64,000 nucleotides of DNA, from NCBI RefSeq assembly GCF_051058965.1, contig NZ_CP183924.1; one strand, 5' to 3'. The position numbers were made by a program, and so were the translations under genes. The stretch comes from Corallococcus exiguus (GTDB taxonomy: Bacteria; Myxococcota; Myxococcia; Myxococcales; Myxococcaceae). The notes under the pieces were generated by a model. It made no database searches, was not told the origin of the DNA, and worked only from the letters and a program-made list of their open reading frames with translations. This document shows, one piece after another, positions 9,114 to 45,832 of the stretch. Numbering within the stretch: position 1 is the first letter of the stretch; every line of letters begins with the position of its first letter.

Positions 9114-10028
9114 ATGACGCCCTTGTTCGTCGACCCCCGCCGGCTCGAAACCTTCCGCGTCGTCGCCTCGACGGGGCAGATCTCCGCCGCCTCCCGCCTG
9201 CTCCACCTGTCACAGCCCGCCGTCACCGCGCAGGTCCGGCAACTGGAGGCGGACTGCGGCCAACCGCTCCTCGTACGCACGGCACGCGGGGTGCGGCTGA
9301 ACGCGGCGGGGCGTGTGCTCTTCGACTACGCCCAGCGCATCCATGGCCTGCTGGACGAGGCGGCGCTCGCCATCGCGGCCGAGGAGACCCTCACCGGAGA
9401 GCTGGCGCTGGCGGCGAGCACCACCGTCGCCAATGCCATCGTGCCCGGCCTGCTGGCGTCCTTCCTGCGCACGCACCGTGAGCTCCAGGTTCGTCTGGAA
9501 GTGGGCAATACGCGCGAGGTGCTGACGTGGTTGTCGGAGGGCCGGGTGCCGCTCGGGCTGGTGGAGGGGCACGCGCGGGCGCCCGGCATCCGGCTGGAGC
9601 GCTACCTGGATGACGAGCTGGTGCCGGTGGTCTCGTCACAGGGGCCGGCGGAGTGGTCGCGGATCCGCACCATGGAGGCGCTGCGGGAGGTGCCGCTGCT
9701 GTGGCGCGAGCAGGGCTCCGGTACACGCGCCGTGCTGGACCGGGCCCTGCGCAAGGCAGGCGTGCGCAAAGGGCCCCGACGCGGAGACCTCCAGCTGGGC
9801 AGCACCGAGGCGATCAAACGGGCCGTGTCGCTGGGCCTGGGCGTGGCACTGCTGTCCCGCTGGAGCATCGACGGAGAGCTGTCCCTGGGCCGCTTCCAGG
9901 TGTTGCCCGTGCCAGGGCTGCGCATCCCGCGAGCGTTCTCCTGGGCCCTGCCCGTGGATGATCCGTCCGGAGCCGCGGGCCGCTTCCTGCGCCATGCCCG
10001 CGCCACGCCCCCGGTGCTGCTGCCCTGA
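9114..10028 (+). CDS. LysR-family transcriptional regulator
   Basis: N-terminal HTH (LETFRVVASTGQISAASRLLHLSQPAVTAQVRQLE) plus LysR substrate-binding domain. 304 aa. Confidence 0.85.
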   Translation: MTPLFVDPRRLETFRVVASTGQISAASRLLHLSQPAVTAQVRQLEADCGQPLLVRTARGVRLNAAGRVLFDYAQRIHGLLDEAALAIAAEETLTGELALAASTTVANAIVPGLLASFLRTHRELQVRLEVGNTREVLTWLSEGRVPLGLVEGHARAPGIRLERYLDDELVPVVSSQGPAEWSRIRTMEALREVPLLWREQGSGTRAVLDRALRKAGVRKGPRRGDLQLGSTEAIKRAVSLGLGVALLSRWSIDGELSLGRFQVLPVPGLRIPRAFSWALPVDDPSGAAGRFLRHARATPPVLLP

Positions 10029-10150
10029 GGCCGAGGATCACGCCGCCGCGCCACGCCCCCAGTGCTGCTGCCCTGAGGCCGAGGATCACGCCGCCGCGCC
10101 ATGCCCGCCACGCCCCCAGTGCTGTTGCCCTGAGCCCGCGGCTCATGCAG
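9991..10150. repeat. tandem direct repeat, ~48-59 bp unit x ~3 (imperfect), duplicating the 3' end of the LysR gene
   Basis: Units gccatgcccgcgccacgcccccggtgctgctgccctgaggccgaggatcacgccgccgc / gccacgcccccagtgctgctgccctgaggccgaggatcacgccgccgc / gccatgcccgccacgcccccagtgctgttgccctgagcccgcggctcatgca are read directly in the sequence. Copy 1 encodes the LysR C-terminus (...ARATPPVLLP*). Copy 3 overlaps the stop of the convergent membrane-protein gene. Confidence 0.7.
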
Positions 10151-11135
10151 CCCAGCCCAGCCGCAGCGCGCCCAGGCACAGGCCCGCCATGAGCAGCCAC
10201 AGCGCCACCGCCTGCGCGAGCGGACGAAGGCCCACCGCCCGCAGCGTCTCGCGCGTCAGCCCGGCTCCCAACAGGAACAGCGTCACGACGAGCAGCTGCC
10301 GGGCGACAGCCGCCACGCCCTGCCCTACCGGTTCGAGCGACGGAAACACCGTCACGACCGCCGCCGCGCCAAGGAACCCGGCGATGAACCACGGCCGGCG
10401 CACCCGACCCGTCACCGCATGGCCTTCCCGTCGGCGCCACGCGGCCAGGCCCACGGTCAGCGGGAGGATCCACAAGGCGCGCGCCAGCTTCACGGGCGTG
10501 GCCACCGCCAGGGCCTCGGGGCCGTAGCGCAGCGCCGCGCCCACCACGGAGCTGGTGTCGTGGATGGCCATCGCGCACCACAAGCCGAACTGGTGCGGCG
10601 TCAGCCCCACCGCATGGCCCACGACGGGGAAGACGAACAGCGCCACGGCGTTGAGCAGGAACACCGTGCCCAGGGCCACGGACGTCTCATGCTCCTGGGG
10701 CCGCAGCACCGGCACCACCGCCGCGATGGCGCTCCCGCCGCAGATGGCCGTGCCCACGCTGATGAGCAGCCCCGTCACGCGGGGAACACCGAGCAGCCGG
10801 GCGAGCCCCACGCCCAGCGTCAGGCACACCGCGATGCCCACCACCGTGTAGCCCAGCCCCTCACGCCCCGCCGCGAGCACCGTGCGCAGGTCCATGCCCG
10901 CGCCCAGCCCCACCACCGCCAGGGACAACAGCCGGGGCGTCAGCGCCCGCGTCGTCGTGGCGAACGGATTGCCCACGGTCAGCGCCACGCACAGCCCCGC
11001 GAGCAGGGCCACGCCAGTGGAGACGAAAGGCAGCAGGCAGAGCGCCGCGCACAGCGGTACCAGGATATGTCCGGCCGTCCAGGTCCGGGGATGGACAACG
11101 GGAAGCGGTGGAGGCGTTTCCATGCGCCAGGACAT
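10143..11135 (-). CDS. YeiH/UPF0324-family inner-membrane protein (putative exporter)
   Basis: 330-aa polytopic membrane protein, Gly/Ala/Leu rich, ~10 predicted TM segments. Convergent with the LysR gene, as in E. coli yeiE/yeiH-type pairing. Confidence 0.7.
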   Translation of the reverse strand: MSWRMETPPPLPVVHPRTWTAGHILVPLCAALCLLPFVSTGVALLAGLCVALTVGNPFATTTRALTPRLLSLAVVGLGAGMDLRTVLAAGREGLGYTVVGIAVCLTLGVGLARLLGVPRVTGLLISVGTAICGGSAIAAVVPVLRPQEHETSVALGTVFLLNAVALFVFPVVGHAVGLTPHQFGLWCAMAIHDTSSVVGAALRYGPEALAVATPVKLARALWILPLTVGLAAWRRREGHAVTGRVRRPWFIAGFLGAAAVVTVFPSLEPVGQGVAAVARQLLVVTLFLLGAGLTRETLRAVGLRPLAQAVALWLLMAGLCLGALRLGWAA

Positions 11136-41176: not shown

Positions 41177-41198
41177 TTCTTCGCTCCTTCAGGCTGTG

Positions 41199-41247
41199 CC
41201 CAACGCCGCCCGTTTCCGGTTTTTCCGGAAGCGAGGCGGCGTTTTCG
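41199..41247 (+). terminator. Rho-independent terminator after ABC-F gene
   Basis: AACGCCGCC...(ccggtttttccgg inner hairpin)...GGCGGCGTT followed by TTTCG. Confidence 0.5.
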
Positions 41248-41436
41248 TGCCCGGATCATTGGTCCGACCTCAGAGGCCCGTAGCCATCCTGGGTCAATTC
41301 CACCCGCCCTCTCCAATACCCTTGAAGGTCATTGGCGACATGGCGCTCAAGACGAACTCGATTATCGTTACGCAATAGATCTCGGCGGCGCGAAGCTAAA
41401 GGACACAGCATCTAGAACAACAACGCGGCCTGGCTG

Positions 41437-43041
41437 ATGCTACCAAGCCACAAAACAGTTCCCCCATACACTCCCATGACCGCATCGCTACAACAGCTAG
41501 GCGAAACAGTAAAAGTCTACAGGCAAGCGCGCCGAATCACCCAAAGCCAACTCGCTGCACGAATATCACCTCGAACAAACCGCTCCGTAGTTGCTCATCT
41601 TGAGCAAGGCATACGCCTCCCTCCTCGATCAGCACTACGAAGTATTTGCCGATACCTAGAAATCCCAACAGAGCTTTGGCTACCTTTCGAGATCGAGGCC
41701 GTAAGACTTCGAACAGTACAAGAACTGAACGCAGGCTCCACGCCGCAGGGACTCCCGCACTTCATTTCCATATCAGGCCTACAGGCCAGCGGCAAAACAA
41801 CGCTAGCAAGAAAACTCGCATCACTACTTGGATATTCATACATAGGACAAAGCATAGCAGGGAAAGAATATCTCCCAGATCTCAAAAAAGACCCAACACG
41901 ATGGGCGTACGAAACACAAGTTGCATTTCTCTGCCACAAGGCCTTTGAAATATCAGAAACACTAGGCAAATCCCGCAGGACAATTATAGATCGATCCATA
42001 TATGAAGACGTAAACATATTCGCACAGAGCTTTTTCAACTCCGGCAACATGGACCACAGAGCATTTGAAACATACAAGGCTCTCGCCAACCACTTCATTG
42101 AAAACATCCCCCCACCCGAGCTTGTAATTTTCTGCGAAGTCGCACCCACCACATCGTTCGCAAGAATAAGAGAGCGCGCCCGCGAGGACGCAAACCTAAA
42201 CACACAGGAGCAAATCAACGCACTACATAACCTCTACACCCAATGGATCTCATCCCACAAGGACTCTTCCATCTGGGCAATAAACAGCGAGCAATTCGAC
42301 TGGCGCACCGATGACGTCGCCAAAGACATCTGCGCGGAATTATCAAGAACATGGAGCAAGCGAGCCACGCCGGAGTCCCAGCTCACGCTATTTGACATGA
42401 TTTTGTCTCCGGCAGACACTGAACCAGCCGAACCAACTCAACGATATTTCACTATCGTCCACGAAAAACCGCGAGCATCAGGCGAAGCACCAAGACTTTC
42501 AGTCGCCAGCGTAACACCGCTCTACCCTACCGCTTACATCGCGGCACCATTCACCAACAAAGCAAAGGCGGAACCAAAGAGAAAGAAAGACTTGGTTTCA
42601 GAAAAGGCCCCACATGGACTTATTGCTCCGGGCAGATACCGAAGCATGCTTCTAGGAATAGAAAAAACACTCAAGTCCATGGGGATCCACAGCTTCATAC
42701 CGCATCGCGACGTCAACAAGTGGGGACGACGAACCCTCACTCCCGATAAAGTTTTCCAAAACTGCTCCAACGCCGTCGAAGAATGCGATCTAATCATATC
42801 CATTCCAGGCCTTAGCCATGGGACCCACTACGAGCTTGGATTGGCAATCGGCCTCAAAAAACCAAGCATTATAATTCATTGCGACGAAATCAAAGAATCA
42901 TTCATAAGCACTGGCGCACAGTCCACCAGCGAACTTATTCTGCCGCTCTCATGCAAGAAAACGACTGAAATACCTCTCTTACTAGCTACGCCCGAAGCCA
43001 CTGCATTCCTCAAGAACTACTTCCCCATGAACACTAATTAA
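41437..43041 (+). CDS. tripartite fusion: XRE-type HTH + deoxynucleoside kinase (dNK/dCK-dGK family) + DNPH1/Rcl-like 2'-deoxynucleoside 5'-phosphate N-hydrolase (nucleoside 2-deoxyribosyltransferase fold)
   Basis: HTH at aa ~14-70 (LQQLGETVKVYRQARRITQSQLAARISPRTNRSVVAHLEQG). dNK at aa ~105-300: Walker A GLQASGKT, 'ERS' motif IDRSIYED, Arg-rich lid FARIRERARED. C-terminal aa ~365-490: YIAAPF...DLIISIPGLSHGTHYELGLAIGLKKPSIII, matching the DNPH1/NDT catalytic signature (S-x-G-x-x-YELG-x-A...KP-I). 534 aa; the alternative start M14 is at ~41476. Confidence 0.7.
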   Translation: MLPSHKTVPPYTPMTASLQQLGETVKVYRQARRITQSQLAARISPRTNRSVVAHLEQGIRLPPRSALRSICRYLEIPTELWLPFEIEAVRLRTVQELNAGSTPQGLPHFISISGLQASGKTTLARKLASLLGYSYIGQSIAGKEYLPDLKKDPTRWAYETQVAFLCHKAFEISETLGKSRRTIIDRSIYEDVNIFAQSFFNSGNMDHRAFETYKALANHFIENIPPPELVIFCEVAPTTSFARIRERAREDANLNTQEQINALHNLYTQWISSHKDSSIWAINSEQFDWRTDDVAKDICAELSRTWSKRATPESQLTLFDMILSPADTEPAEPTQRYFTIVHEKPRASGEAPRLSVASVTPLYPTAYIAAPFTNKAKAEPKRKKDLVSEKAPHGLIAPGRYRSMLLGIEKTLKSMGIHSFIPHRDVNKWGRRTLTPDKVFQNCSNAVEECDLIISIPGLSHGTHYELGLAIGLKKPSIIIHCDEIKESFISTGAQSTSELILPLSCKKTTEIPLLLATPEATAFLKNYFPMNTN

Positions 43042-43046
43042 ACACC

Positions 43047-43991
43047 ATGGACACAATCCTTCACTGGTACAAAGAGCTAAGCCCAACATTACGAAGCTTC
43101 CTTCGCGTATTTCTTTCGTTTTCGCTTTTCTACTGTGGCATCTTCGCCGAGCACTACGTCACAAAAGATATCGACACCCTAACCATGGGGCCGCTAGCTC
43201 TTCGCGCGATATCAATGGGACTTGCCGGGCTTATCCTCTTCGGCATCTCGGCGACTTTCTCGTCAAGACTTGACAGTCTTTTTGATCGGGATCGGCGACA
43301 ACAAGAACACTTGGCATACGCCTCCAGTCTTATCTCGCAGTACATAGCAAGCCAAACCAAGACCGTCGCCGCAGCAAATGAGACTCCAACGCCCTCAAAA
43401 GACAGCCTCCTGCATTTGCTCGTGACCTCCAAGCCAAGAATCCAGGAAATAACAGACAAAGTATATCAATTTTTCGAATCAAAATACGGACAATCATCCA
43501 AGATCGAAGAAAAGATCGATTTTGAAGTCACATTCATGAGCAAATCATACATCGACCAGGGGATAACGATCCCCGCCTACGCAAATCGCATGGGACGGGC
43601 CCCAAAGAGCATGATTGATCGACAAGGCCATCCGGAACGATACAACCAAAGCGTCACCGCAGAAGTCTATCGAGACGGACGCCCTGAGATGCGCCTCATA
43701 TCAGACACTAGCGATCCCAAGGCAGGGTATGTCGCGCTCTACTCAGGCCAAACAGAGAGAATCAAATCGACAATAATCCAGCCAGTGCTATCTTTTGACA
43801 ATAGGATCCTTGGCACGCTGGTTGTCCACTGCGACCAAAAGGGATTCTTCAAGAATGATGATGGCAAATTCTGGCGAGAAATCTTCGAAGGGTTTGCGCG
43901 CAATTTGGCGCTCGAAAAAACGCGACTTGATGCATTGATGTCCACTTCTGTCGCGACCACACTTGGATTCTCGCCCGCTCCGCCATTTTAG
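43047..43991 (+). CDS. membrane protein with two N-terminal TM helices and a C-terminal cytoplasmic GAF-like/unknown domain (island partner gene)
   Basis: TM1 ~aa 17-37 (FLRVFLSFSLFYCGIFAEHY). TM2 ~aa 48-70 (PLALRAISMGLAGLILFGISATF). ~240-aa soluble domain with no recognisable catalytic motif. Same low GC and A3 codon bias as the upstream gene. 5-nt intergenic gap. Confidence 0.6.
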   Translation: MDTILHWYKELSPTLRSFLRVFLSFSLFYCGIFAEHYVTKDIDTLTMGPLALRAISMGLAGLILFGISATFSSRLDSLFDRDRRQQEHLAYASSLISQYIASQTKTVAAANETPTPSKDSLLHLLVTSKPRIQEITDKVYQFFESKYGQSSKIEEKIDFEVTFMSKSYIDQGITIPAYANRMGRAPKSMIDRQGHPERYNQSVTAEVYRDGRPEMRLISDTSDPKAGYVALYSGQTERIKSTIIQPVLSFDNRILGTLVVHCDQKGFFKNDDGKFWREIFEGFARNLALEKTRLDALMSTSVATTLGFSPAPPF

Positions 43992-44377
43992 GCTGGGCAC
44001 CAGAATCCCATTTTGGCTCCAGACCTGCGAGTGCGGCAGCGGCGAATGTCATCATAATCACACAACTTCATCAGCAATAACGGCGCAACCTGCCCGCGTC
44101 TCGCGAATAACGATAATTCTAAATTCACTCTCGACCGCGCCGTTCGCCGGTTCACTTTATACATACCAGGCGTTTCTCAGCCTAGCAGCACTGTTCTCTA
44201 GTGGTGTGTATACAGTCCCAGTGACTTATCCCTGCAACGCAATTGGTCGGTGAACAACTGCTGAATCAAGATCAGCCGTTTTCGCTGCCAGTCAAGCCGA
44301 TTCAGGCTCATGTTGCCTTATCCAGAGAATCGTTCTTGATGCCGGGGGGACGGCGTCAGTAGGTATGATGCAAGGCC

Positions 44378-45832
44378 ATGTACCCGACACGCCGTCTTCT
44401 GGCCCGTGGACAGTGGTTGTTCGATCTCAGACCGCATCGGCTCATCGTCTTCCACGGGCATGGAGGCGTGCGCCAAGAGGTCAGTGGAAACGTGCCGGAT
44501 ACTCCGTCCGCGCCCGTGGTGCTCGCCGCGCTGGATGAGGCAGAGGACGTCTGGGTGGGTAGCGGGGATCGGCGTGTCTTCTCCGTGGGGACCGGCGCGA
44601 GCGCTCCTGTCCAAGCCTTTCCGAGGGAGTGCTTCGATCTCACCACAGATGGAGACCGGCTCATTGGAACGGTGGTGGACGGCTCCCTCAAACTGGCCAC
44701 CCTCTTCACAACCGATGGATCCGGACAACGATGGGAGCCCATGACCCTGCCCAAGCCCGTGAGCGCCAGTCACGGGTACGGCTATAGCGAGGGGCGTCCT
44801 CACCGTCAGTCCCCCGATGGGGCGTTCCTCGACACGGGCCCTTTCGGCATCACCGTCGTGGAGAAGGGCCGGGGCCGCGTCTACGTGCTCCGCCCGGGGG
44901 CGGCGCAGCCAGAGGGCGCTCTCCAGGTGGAGCCGGGCCATGAGCAGGACATCTGGCGGGCCCAGGCCACACCCCACGGCGTGCTCCTCCTGCTCGTCAT
45001 CAACTACCGGCAGACGGCGCTCCTCCACTTCGCGCTCGACGGCACCCTGCTCGGCTCCATCCCGGAGCAGGATGATGAGGATGATGAGGCTGCGGATGAC
45101 CTGACCTGGGGTGGTGCCGGGATGTGCGTCCTCGACGCAGACCGGGCGCTCCTCTTCGTGCAGGACAAGACCCTCCTGGTGTCCCTGCCTGGGCTCCAGG
45201 TGATCGAGACGCTCGTGGGGGAGTGGCCCCACTTCGTGTCCGTGGCCCCTGCGGGGCCTTACCGGTGGTGGGTGGGCCCCGAGGACAGTGACGCGCTCTT
45301 CCTGCTCACCGCCGAGCCCGGACAGCCCTTGCGCCTCGACGCCTCGAACCGTCCGGTGAGCCCGGGCGCGCCGCTCATGCACGTGGGCTACAAGACGCCC
45401 GCGATCCACTGGACCGAACACACCTCGGCGCCGCTGACCGTGTCCTCCCCCGTGGCAGAGACGTGGCGGGCGGTGTTGCGCAACGACGGTACCGCTTGTG
45501 AGGCGGTGCGGATCCGCGTGTCAGGGGTGCTCATCGGCGCTCGCGTGGTGGACGTGAGCGTGCGGTATCGCGGCCAGCCGCTCCCGATGGTGGAGGAGCA
45601 GCGCGTGAACGTCGTGGGGGTTACCGCCGGACTGGAGGGAGGGGCCACCGCGGAGCTGGAAGTGACCTTCAAGCCCCGGAGCGAGGGCTCGGGACCGCTG
45701 ACCATCACCGTCGAGCCATGCTCCTGGCAGTCGAAGGGCAAAGAGTGGCAGTGGCAGACCCAAGAGGAGTCTCGCGCCCTCGCGGCGACGGGCCATCCGG
45801 CATCCGCCCAGTTCCTGCTCACGGTGGAGTAG
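44378..45832 (+). CDS. hypothetical protein (high-GC, host-like composition)
   Basis: 484-aa ORF with GC3 bias. No recognisable motif. True start uncertain. Confidence 0.5.
   Translation: MYPTRRLLARGQWLFDLRPHRLIVFHGHGGVRQEVSGNVPDTPSAPVVLAALDEAEDVWVGSGDRRVFSVGTGASAPVQAFPRECFDLTTDGDRLIGTVVDGSLKLATLFTTDGSGQRWEPMTLPKPVSASHGYGYSEGRPHRQSPDGAFLDTGPFGITVVEKGRGRVYVLRPGAAQPEGALQVEPGHEQDIWRAQATPHGVLLLLVINYRQTALLHFALDGTLLGSIPEQDDEDDEAADDLTWGGAGMCVLDADRALLFVQDKTLLVSLPGLQVIETLVGEWPHFVSVAPAGPYRWWVGPEDSDALFLLTAEPGQPLRLDASNRPVSPGAPLMHVGYKTPAIHWTEHTSAPLTVSSPVAETWRAVLRNDGTACEAVRIRVSGVLIGARVVDVSVRYRGQPLPMVEEQRVNVVGVTAGLEGGATAELEVTFKPRSEGSGPLTITVEPCSWQSKGKEWQWQTQEESRALAATGHPASAQFLLTVE

Follow-up and report, generated by a model that had tools for sequence, protein, structure and literature searches.

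A two-gene cassette in Corallococcus exiguus that fuses a deoxynucleoside kinase-family domain to a predicted nucleotide N-glycosidase: a candidate anti-phage module

A two-gene cassette was found on a low-GC island (positions 41180..44350, no strand assigned; composition profile and GC computation) within 64,000 nucleotides of Corallococcus exiguus DNA, hereafter the window. Gene A (41437..43041, + strand) encodes a helix-turn-helix (HTH) domain, a deoxynucleoside kinase (dNK)-family domain, a linker with a candidate clamp-binding motif and a MilB-like domain predicted to be a nucleotide N-glycosidase, while gene B (43047..43991, + strand) encodes a membrane-anchored GAF protein of 314 residues. 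Judging from its sequence, the cassette is an undescribed system, probably directed against phages, that would act on the building blocks of DNA. The specific reading we favor, held at a confidence slightly short of even, is a horizontally mobile conflict cassette of two genes, most likely directed against phages or other mobile genetic elements (MGEs), that would work on deoxynucleotide supply.

The gene A reading frame (41437–43041, + strand) is unbroken and comprises 534 residues counted from the first ATG; its product is 100% identical to an NCBI Corallococcus exiguus protein named 'deoxynucleoside kinase' (P0001). The NCBI gene model has 521 residues and, together with the homologue alignment, agrees on M14, so the second ATG (nt 41476) is the likely true start. 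An earlier note on this DNA had described a single ORF with three domains, which Pfam, profile, and structure matches uphold, and the four strings it quoted (GLQASGKT, IDRSIYED, RIRERARED, and SIPGLSHGTHYELGLAIGLKKPSIII) are all present in the translation. The check it had named for a frameshifted fusion was run: kinase and glycosidase lie on one ORF in 48/48 homologues, drawn from independent assemblies in about ten phyla, which confirms at the sequence level that the three-domain fusion is real and conserved. Since these 48 homologues are single ORFs over both domains and keep a conserved linker motif, the possibility that gene A is an artefact, i.e., a frameshifted or misassembled join of separate kinase and glycosidase genes for which no support was found, is ruled out, with a negligible chance left to it.

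The N-terminal XRE-type HTH domain proposed earlier (residues 20–80; 41494..41676, + strand) was recovered by Pfam HTH_31 (E=6e-10; 39.7 bits against a cut-off of 27, residues 20–80) and HTH_3 (E=2e-6; 28.3 bits against a cut-off of 23), consistent with membership of the XRE family. The domain is found in only a subset of gene A homologues, being missing from more than half of the family, and as an optional element it would probably serve autoregulation of the operon.

The kinase domain (residues 110–297; 41764..42327, + strand) matched Pfam dNK (PF01712) at E=1.3e-31 (110.4 bits against a cut-off of 27, profile positions 1–193 of 203), and the closest solved structures in the PDB were likewise dNKs (8puu, 1.6e-21; 2jaq/2jas, 2e-11), in agreement with the previous assignment to the dNK-family P-loop kinases. 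Features common to Dm-dNK, dCK/dGK, Mycoplasma dAK, and PDB 8puu are present: the P-loop (Walker A GLQASGKTT, 41776-41802), the DRS(ERS)-ED motif (DRSIYED, 41989-42009), the lid arginines (RIRER, 42163-42177; all + strand), and the base-contacting Gln. Residues K120, T122, Q161, R186, E190, and R247 are kept in 48/48 homologues, R243 in 47/48, and D185 in 46/48. The P-loop, DRS, and lid motifs recognized earlier are thus conserved, but the chemistry is less certain than had been assumed. The general-base Glu of dNKs ('EPVE' motif after the P-loop) is Gln in the window protein (Q138; 41848-41850, + strand) and varies across the family, with Glu in only 30/48 homologues and loss of it in the remaining 18/48, and the Tyr that contacts and reads the 3′-OH in Dm-dNK is not conserved. 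Because of these two departures, the gene A kinase may be slow or may use another substrate. Whereas dNKs stand alone, this kinase domain is fused to other domains.

The C-terminal domain (42526..43038, + strand) is a predicted nucleotide 5′-monophosphate N-glycosidase of NDT fold and MilB clade. Pfam Nuc_deoxyrib_tr (PF05014) matched residues 408–483 below its cut-off (E=1.5e-5; 25.5 bits against 28.8). The identity of the domain is secure despite this score because the gene A family profile detects MilB in the PDB at 2e-14 (BcmB, 3e-12; BlsM, 3e-11), and because the AlphaFold model (pLDDT 83) matches MilB by Foldseek (E=7e-9, TM 0.77–0.80). In the structure comparison with DNPH1 and NDTs that the earlier note had proposed, the model matched both (DNPH1 E about 2e-5, TM about 0.7–0.75), while the same family profile gave E=0.14–0.7 against NDT and DNPH1. 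DNPH1 membership was rejected on sequence (E=0.28–0.68), the likeness being at the level of fold. The former description of this domain as DNPH1/Rcl-like is therefore retained for the NDT fold, the catalytic Glu, and a deoxy-type Tyr, but the sequence clade is MilB/BcmB/BlsM.

These closest relatives, by sequence and by structure, are CMP and 5-hydroxymethyl-CMP N-glycosidases of nucleoside-antibiotic pathways. Gene A has in common with them the (F/Y)-x-A-A-P-F beta1 motif (YIAAPFT, 42535-42555) with its base-stacking Phe (F372; MilB F22), the HR..WG motif (PHRDVNKWG, 42700-42726), the phosphate-binding Ser/Gly (S460 and G462; MilB S97 and G99), and the catalytic Glu within S-x-G-T-H-x-E-x-G (SHGTHYELGLA, 42814-42846; E466 at 42832-42834, MilB E103; all + strand). 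Y367, F372, H423, W429, S460, G462, H464, and E466 are conserved in 48/48 homologues. Differences from the MilB clade are an insertion of about 25 residues after beta1; Tyr in place of Phe as the first motif residue; T373 (47/48 homologues) in place of the Arg/Lys that reads the 5-hydroxymethyl group in MilB (R23) and BcmB; Asn427 aligned with MilB E62, which reads cytosine; and a nearly invariant Cys, C443, aligned with the leaving-group acid (MilB D78, DNPH1 D80), for which there is no acidic counterpart. In gene A, unlike in these enzymes, the domain shares its polypeptide with a kinase, a clamp motif, and in some homologues an HTH, and no antibiotic gene cluster surrounds the locus.

Tyr or Phe at the position of DNPH1 Y24 and MilB F17 sets deoxy versus ribo preference, and the F17Y mutation of MilB moves preference to deoxyribose (PMC10603095). 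The ribo-specifying Phe was not found in gene A, where Y367 occupies this position in 48/48 homologues. Because Y367 and T373 occupy the specificity positions, the prediction is an enzyme specific for deoxy substrates but not for the hydroxymethyl group, and the invariance of Y367 makes a dNMP a plausible substrate. Specificity for 5-hydroxymethyl pyrimidines under the MilB 'P-F-(R/K)' rule was not supported, Thr being at that position. The predicted reaction is that of DNPH1/Rcl (2′-deoxynucleoside 5′-phosphate N-hydrolase), i.e., dNMP to base plus deoxyribose-5-phosphate, and the NDT fold, catalytic Glu, and deoxy-specifying Tyr are held in common; DNPH1, in contrast, is a stand-alone eukaryotic pool sanitiser. 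Since Cys443 aligns where the leaving-group Asp is expected, the predicted chemistry differs from that of characterized enzymes. With its deoxy-type Tyr, and with Cys where the general acid usually stands, this MilB-like domain would be a variant new to enzymology and one that could interest nucleoside biocatalysis.

The linker between the two enzyme domains carries a candidate beta-sliding-clamp (DnaN) binding motif, QLTLF (residues 315–319; 42379..42393, + strand). Across the family, the pentapeptide is conserved as Q in 48/48, L in 32/48, D or S in 28/48, L in 44/48, and F in 43/48 homologues (100/67/58/92/90%), and it sits in a variable linker of 34–57 residues, where conservation of the flanking columns does not exceed 30%. 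The published clamp-binding consensus is QL[S/D]LF or QxxLF, with positions 1, 4, and 5 critical (PMC12309361; PMC4549789). The Q-L-[D/S]-L-F pentapeptide matches this consensus as displayed by polymerases, Hda, MutS/L, and transposases, and resembles these in the ranking of its conserved positions (1, 4, 5) and in lying within an extended variable segment, from which we infer that gene A may bind the clamp. No clamp-type motif was found in the literature searched for any nucleoside/nucleotide-metabolizing enzyme or defense protein.

The gene B product combines hydrophobic N-terminal helices (about residues 16–72; nt 43092-43262, + strand) with a GAF fold (about residues 140–300; nt 43464-43946, + strand). 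Four arginines of the GAF domain (R181, R184, R192, and R238) are invariant, the C terminus ends in a conserved PPF, and the domain most resembles PtsP and fRMsr-type GAFs rather than GAFs that bind nucleotides. Gene B proteins form a discrete family of a single architecture (225 clusters among 1.84 billion representatives). Gene B adjoins gene A in 26/27 informative loci (10/11 from the A side and 16/16 informative from the B side) and is its near-obligate partner in a two-gene module. Should a role for the cassette be confirmed, it would give a function to this uncharacterized family of membrane GAF proteins. Gene A and its downstream gene are tightly coupled or overlapping.

The island has a GC content of 50.3%, against 69.6% in the rest of the window and about 70% in the Corallococcus genome. 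The module is rare and patchy (35 gene A clusters and 225 gene B clusters found) and is spread over about ten phyla; this distribution, together with 50% versus 70% GC, supports horizontal acquisition of the cassette. The cassette also appears strain-variable, because a one-genome-per-species scan returned no Corallococcus locus. The island is flanked by core genes (TGT, an ABC-F ATPase, and a Ser/Thr kinase), and the window contains no tRNA, integrase, or convincing flanking direct repeats as signatures of integration. A phage- or plasmid-borne element was considered and rejected, as comparison with 50,697 phage records, with 72,556 plasmids, and with the IMG/VR viral contigs yielded nothing for gene B; the plasmid matches to gene A were stand-alone dNKs only.

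The cassette often lies near mobile or defense genes, among them integrase/relaxase, TIR, an OLD-TOPRIM plus UvrD pair that is Gabija-like, AbiC, Eco57I and Type I restriction-modification (R-M), AbiD, AbiEii, and a HepT/MNT toxin–antitoxin (TA) pair. Only one lineage (L003-5) has the TIR gene, and several loci, that of the window included, lie among ordinary housekeeping genes. These contexts are compatible with a defense role. Some variant operons add a TtuA/NcsA-like PP-loop enzyme (pyrimidine-C2-activating), which is the only accessory gene that recurs beside the core module, and one variant (L032) lacks gene B and has NUDIX, ThyA-like, and dCTP-deaminase-like genes in place of the GAF partner. 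Because variants couple gene A to these genes or to the PP-loop enzyme, they place it, as a sequence-based assignment, in pyrimidine deoxynucleotide chemistry. The PP-loop thiolase-like and NUDIX, ThyA-like, and DCD variants suggest a modular pyrimidine deoxynucleotide toolkit, which could yield new modified bases or antimetabolites.

A known defense system was rejected, since PADLOC v2 gave no system-level match for the cassette proteins; gene B had no match at all, and gene A had weak domain-level matches only (VakA, 3e-9; PDC-M51B, 6.5e-5; and HTH_VI). In the literature searched, which included a preprint on TIR signaling, no description of the gene A architecture was found, nor of PADLOC 'VakA' or 'PDC-M51'; the earlier remark that no characterized protein with this architecture was known agrees with both searches. 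The core module consists of genes A and B only; CBASS, Pycsar, and Thoeris-like systems have a synthase dedicated to making a signal (CD-NTase, cyclase, or TIR), which this core lacks. Nucleotide-pool-targeting anti-phage systems include dCTP deaminase, dGTPase, and NDT-like retron effectors, and the theme they would have in common with the cassette is the starving or poisoning of phage replication through nucleotide metabolism. One gene A variant shares its operon with a dCTP-deaminase-like gene, a point of contact with dCTP-deaminase defense. We know of no system in which a nucleoside kinase is joined to a dNMP glycosidase, to a clamp-binding motif, or to a transmembrane GAF partner.

Under the favored reading of a conflict cassette, the kinase would convert deoxynucleosides, probably pyrimidine ones, to dNMPs, and the glycosidase would irreversibly cleave these to free base and deoxyribose-5-phosphate, while the linker motif QL[D/S]LF would dock the enzyme on the DnaN clamp, at replication forks or on loaded clamps. 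Kinase and glycosidase together would form a one-way sink that blocks the salvage of deoxynucleosides and dNMPs, on which phages rely when recycling host DNA. The arginine-rich GAF pocket of gene B may bind a small phosphorylated molecule, for which the substrates and products of gene A are the most plausible candidates, and gene B would then gate the system or carry out an abortive response at the membrane. If confirmed, such a system would bring a new enzymatic logic to nucleotide-targeting immunity, in which deoxynucleosides are trapped by phosphorylation and then destroyed; it would strike at the recycling of broken-down host DNA that many lytic phages need, and it would provide the first link of a defense enzyme to the sliding clamp.

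Simple pool depletion leaves unexplained why a PP-loop enzyme that modifies bases, or a GAF protein in the membrane, should be needed, and a freely diffusing substrate offers no obvious reason for clamp docking. A possible, if doubtful, elaboration is an immune module wired to the replisome: the kinase/dNMP-glycosidase would ride on or guard the DnaN clamp and, once the clamp or the deoxynucleoside pool is disturbed by phage replication or by breakdown of host DNA, would make a base or deoxyribose-5-phosphate signal that the membrane GAF receptor reads to abort infection. Such a module would be the first defense system known with a clamp-binding motif and the first with a GAF-gated membrane effector.

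Rather unlikely, in our estimate, is that gene A exists for its product, a free pyrimidine base or deoxyribose-5-phosphate, and not for depletion of its substrate, with the gene B GAF domain sensing that product as a second-messenger-like alarm that leads to membrane disruption, or with the product itself acting as a toxic antimetabolite. The closest relatives MilB, BcmB, and BlsM do liberate free (modified) cytosine for small-molecule biosynthesis, the TtuA/NcsA-like PP-loop and ThyA-like partners make sense if base identity matters, and gene B is laid out as a ligand-gated membrane effector, with transmembrane helices, a sensor, and no other output domain. However, the core module has no signal-type synthase (cyclase or TIR-only), no enzyme that modifies bases is encoded in the window cassette, T373 stands in place of the hydroxymethyl-reading Arg/Lys, gene B is missing from the L032 variant, and its GAF domain is not nearest to nucleotide-binding GAFs. 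In the variant operons, the base would first be modified by the PP-loop or ThyA-like partner. The toxic-product version is reminiscent of the bacimethrin and mildiomycin pathways, which use BcmB and MilB.

A TA-like or abortive-infection pair, in which gene B is a membrane toxin and gene A an HTH-bearing antitoxin or regulator whose enzyme domains mainly sense nucleotide or replication status rather than catalyze pool changes, is unlikely. The gene order is typical of type II TA systems (an XRE-HTH gene upstream of a tightly coupled or overlapping gene), TA-rich neighborhoods are common, the general-base Glu is lost in 18/48 kinases, and the conserved C-terminal PF tail of gene B and the linear motif of gene A could mediate protein–protein contacts. 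Yet more than half of the gene A family lacks the HTH, and gene A is also found in an enzymatic operon that has no gene B. Apart from the general-base Glu, every catalytic residue of the two enzyme domains is invariant, which favors real catalysis by gene A.

Very unlikely is a role outside defense, as a replication-coupled nucleotide-pool sanitiser or salvage module on a mobile island, in which gene A, tethered to the clamp, would destroy aberrant dNMPs (such as 5-hydroxymethyl-dUMP or dUMP) at the fork in the manner of DNPH1, and gene B would serve as a membrane sensor or a regulator linked to uptake. DNPH1 itself sanitises the nucleotide pool by acting on hmdUMP (PMC10603095), a clamp-binding motif is a typical feature of proteins of replication and repair, and the housekeeping surroundings of several loci, including that of the window, fit such a role. 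A housekeeping sanitiser would, however, be expected to be widespread and vertically inherited, whereas this family is rare and patchy (35 A clusters; 225 B clusters), foreign in GC to its host, and apparently strain-variable in Corallococcus by the scan above, and R-M, Abi, TIR, and TA genes often adjoin the cassette.

Upstream of gene A, a promoter scan gave nothing above shuffled background, and there is no obvious operator palindrome. The island has no Rfam match (regulatory RNA), its non-coding part included. This low-GC non-coding tail (43992..44377, no strand assigned) contains a terminator-like hairpin at 44260-44276.

Gene A of the window, an uninterrupted open reading frame (ORF) of 534 codons on the plus strand (41437–43041), encodes an XRE-type HTH (residues 20–80; Pfam HTH_31, E=6e-10), a full-length deoxynucleoside kinase (dNK) domain (residues 110–297; Pfam, E=1.3e-31) and a nucleoside 2-deoxyribosyltransferase (NDT) match below threshold (residues 408–483; Pfam, 25.5 bits versus a cut-off of 28.8). 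All peptide strings cited in an earlier note were found in this translation, and the product matches, at 100% identity, a 521-aa Corallococcus exiguus NCBI protein named “deoxynucleoside kinase”. Two in-frame ATGs are present, at nt 41437 (534 aa) and nt 41476 (M14, 521 aa); judging by the NCBI model and by alignment of the homologues, the second is the likelier start, and residues are numbered here from the first. A word-index search yielded 35 clusters of A-family proteins in two architectures, HTH, kinase, and glycosidase (∼520 aa) or kinase and glycosidase without the HTH (∼430 aa). One ORF covered both catalytic domains in 48/48 homologues, a set including 15 proteins extracted from genome loci, which bears out the single-ORF, three-domain fusion proposed in the earlier note and rules out a fusion artefact.

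The C-terminal domain had been described as DNPH1/Rcl-like, a reading correct as to fold but not as to lineage, which is MilB-like. When this domain was searched against the PDB as a single sequence, the best matches (5e-7 to 4e-6) were MilB, BcmB, and BlsM, which are CMP/5-hydroxymethyl-CMP N-glycosidases. A glycosidase profile made from 25 A-family members matched the same enzymes in the PDB at 2e-14, 3e-12, and 3e-11, respectively, and classical NDTs and DNPH1/Rcl at nonsignificant values (0.14–0.7). An AlphaFold model of residues 334–534 (pLDDT 83) likewise appeared closest to MilB (E=7e-9, TM 0.77–0.80), followed by a cyanobacterial NDT at ∼4e-6 and DNPH1 at ∼2e-5 (TM ∼0.7–0.75). The motif F-L-(G/A)-(G/A)-P-F-X is common to MilB homologues. 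Within MilB, base stacking is by F22, 5-hydroxymethyl recognition by R23 (Arg or Lys), phosphate binding by S97 and G99, and catalysis by E103 (PMC4081090). MilB F17 is equivalent to DNPH1 Y24, and F17Y moves preference towards deoxyribose (PMC10603095). In A, Y367-I-A-A-P-F372-T373, S460, G462, and E466 are kept in 47 or 48 of the 48 sequences, and because of the pattern at Y367, F372, T373, S460, G462, and E466, the domain is predicted to be a 2′-deoxy-specific nucleoside-5′-monophosphate N-glycosidase with no specific reading of the hydroxymethyl group. In contrast to MilB, A has Asn427 aligned with the cytosine reader E62, and a nearly invariant Cys443 (window 42763–42765; 42/48 homologues) aligned with the leaving-group acid (MilB D78, DNPH1 D80). 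Cysteine at the general-acid position suggests changed glycosidase chemistry or a redox-sensitive site.

Among solved structures, true dNKs are nearest to the kinase domain (8puu, 1.6e-21), with Mycoplasma dAK/dGK (2jaq/2jas) at 2e-11 and Dm-dNK at ∼3e-9. All 48 sequences retain the P-loop Lys/Thr, Q161, R186, E190, and R247, and predicted ATP binding is secure. In dNKs, the Glu of the “EPVE” motif is the general base on the 5′-OH. The window protein has Gln at this position, Glu is kept in only 30/48 homologues, and the 3′-OH-contacting Tyr is mostly Phe in the A family; because these two residues are poorly kept, the acceptor substrate and reaction rate are not secure. The dNK reading of the earlier note thus holds for family and core motifs, and the kinase chemistry is less sure than the note took it to be.

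The interdomain linker is variable in length (34–57 residues) and sequence, with columns flanking its motif ≤30% conserved. The motif itself is a conserved pentapeptide (Q in 48/48, L in 32/48, D or S in 28/48, L in 44/48, F in 43/48), reading QLTLF in the window (nt 42379–42393); four Firmicute loci carry QLSLF exactly. The bacterial β-clamp-binding consensus is QL[S/D]LF, more generally QxxLF (PMC12309361, PMC4549789), and because the motif agrees with it position by position, putative docking of A on the clamp is the most economical reading and a fairly probable one. The pentapeptide could instead bind the product of gene B or another pocket.

Gene B (window 43047–43991, plus strand; 314 aa), encoding a membrane-anchored GAF protein, starts six bases 3′ of A. 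A B homologue of 310–320 aa directly follows A in all long A contigs but one (L001, L002, L003–5, L006–L009, L029, and L031), and the A stop and B start codons often overlap. On the metagenomic contig L002, the B homologue (∼9548–10480) contains one in-frame stop, hence was not called, and represents a pseudogene or else a misassembly. A search started from B gave 18 genome loci in Acidobacteriota, Nitrospirota, Cloacimonadota, Desulfobacterota, Verrucomicrobiota, Planctomycetota, Gemmatimonadota, Alphaproteobacteria, several Bacillota families, a Peribacteria MAG, and Myxococcus; A adjoined B in 16/16 of those with enough flanking sequence. This pairing is firmly established, as are the domain identities and the invariant catalytic and motif residues. 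NCBI names the two genes only “deoxynucleoside kinase” and “GAF domain-containing protein”. B proteins terminate in a conserved Pro-Phe (PPF, APF, or KPF) or, failing that, in Phe (window 43965–43991), and this tail may be a docking site for A or another partner.

Several operons vary this arrangement. A PP-loop gene lies directly 5′ of A in six distinct HTH-less loci (L003:7057–8001, L007:6912–8000, L013:2558–3514, L015:1825–2787, L017:5414–6346, and L021:5798–6727); in a seventh, the copy is farther off and divergent to A. Among solved structures, its product is closest to the [4Fe-4S]-dependent 2-thiouridine synthetases NcsA and TtuA (7e-13 to 9e-11), then to TilS and MnmA, all of which activate a pyrimidine C2 carbonyl. 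The SGGKDS PP-loop and the PC..C/GC.H cysteines are invariant, and the enzyme may thiolate or aminate pyrimidine C2 in a nucleotide substrate. In two Acutalibacteraceae loci, an additional stand-alone dNK of 186 aa is found immediately 3′ of B (L025:8555–9112 and L026:8555–9115; Pfam dNK, E=7e-17); L023 has an ADP-ribosyltransferase-exoenzyme-like ORF at this place. The operon at L032:8001–11821, also present in L033, lacks B: its A homologue (P0015, motif QLGLF kept) is followed by three overlapping genes encoding NUDIX, divergent thymidylate-synthase-family, and divergent dCTP-deaminase-like proteins. It occupies a 50.6% GC island in a ∼65% GC genome, surrounded by HepT/MNT, CopG, Uma2, and a Y1 transposase, and may be a separate system destroying or modifying pyrimidine deoxynucleotides. 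The combination of ThyA-like enzyme and MilB-like glycosidase is reminiscent of the MilA/MilB pair. Jointly, the variant operons link A to the chemistry of pyrimidine (deoxy)nucleotides.

The best-supported mechanism, which we favor tentatively, is a mobile conflict cassette of a clamp-docked bifunctional A and a ligand-binding membrane partner, B. The kinase would trap deoxynucleosides as dNMPs, the glycosidase would cleave these to base and deoxyribose-5-phosphate, and loss of dNMPs would stop the salvage exploited by phages, with B gating or executing the response. The main rival, that the freed base or sugar phosphate matters most, as signal or antimetabolite, would better account for the PP-loop and ThyA-like partners and for the receptor-like layout of B, and is overall unlikely. 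A TA-like pair is less likely still, and a non-defence pool sanitiser is the least likely of these. Every model leaves unexplained the absent general-base Glu in the window protein, the Cys that replaces the general acid, and the housekeeping surroundings of several loci, and none offers an obvious reason for tethering a small-molecule enzyme to the clamp. Full-text literature searches returned no description of the architecture of A and PADLOC no system-level match for the cassette, in agreement with the earlier note, to which no characterised protein of this architecture was known. Each fold is already known, and nucleotide-pool targeting is a known defence theme; there is a low but real probability that the cassette represents a system of an entirely new category, coupled to the replisome.

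In the window, the cassette forms a ∼3.1-kb island whose GC content is 50.3%, against 69.6% for the background. TGT and an ABC-F ATPase border it at one end, an unassigned ORF and a Ser/Thr kinase at the other, and the site lacks tRNA genes, an integrase, and clear repeats. A 385-nt noncoding low-GC tail with a terminator-like hairpin (44260–44276) follows B (43992–44377) and gave no Rfam match or conserved ORF, and the 484-aa high-GC ORF just 3′ of the island (44378–45832) gave no Pfam match at E≤1e-3. The A–B module was not found in 50,697 phage records, 72,556 plasmids, or IMG/VR contigs. Its foreign island composition, rarity, and patchy distribution are firm observations. A one-genome-per-species scan found a Myxococcus vastator fragment and no Corallococcus locus, which suggests, without proving, that the window island is strain-variable. 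Elsewhere, neighbors include an integrase, relaxase, and ISL3 transposase (L001), DUF3800 (L002), a TIR protein, AbiC, and an OLD-TOPRIM ATPase and UvrD helicase pair that we take to be Gabija-like (L003/4), a GT4-conflict glycosyltransferase (L006), and Eco57I R-M with a MORC-like ATPase (L008). The 15 bulk-scanned genome loci contain Type I R-M (three loci), AbiD, AbiEii, and WYL, and also many metabolic genes. In unrelated genomes, the module is adjoined by a MORC-like HATPase_c_3 protein (L008:11808–14000, L013:460–2424) or a HIT/DEAD-helicase/S24-peptidase protein (L003:2031–5885, L021:2536–4923), recurring neighbors that may be co-travelling defence genes.
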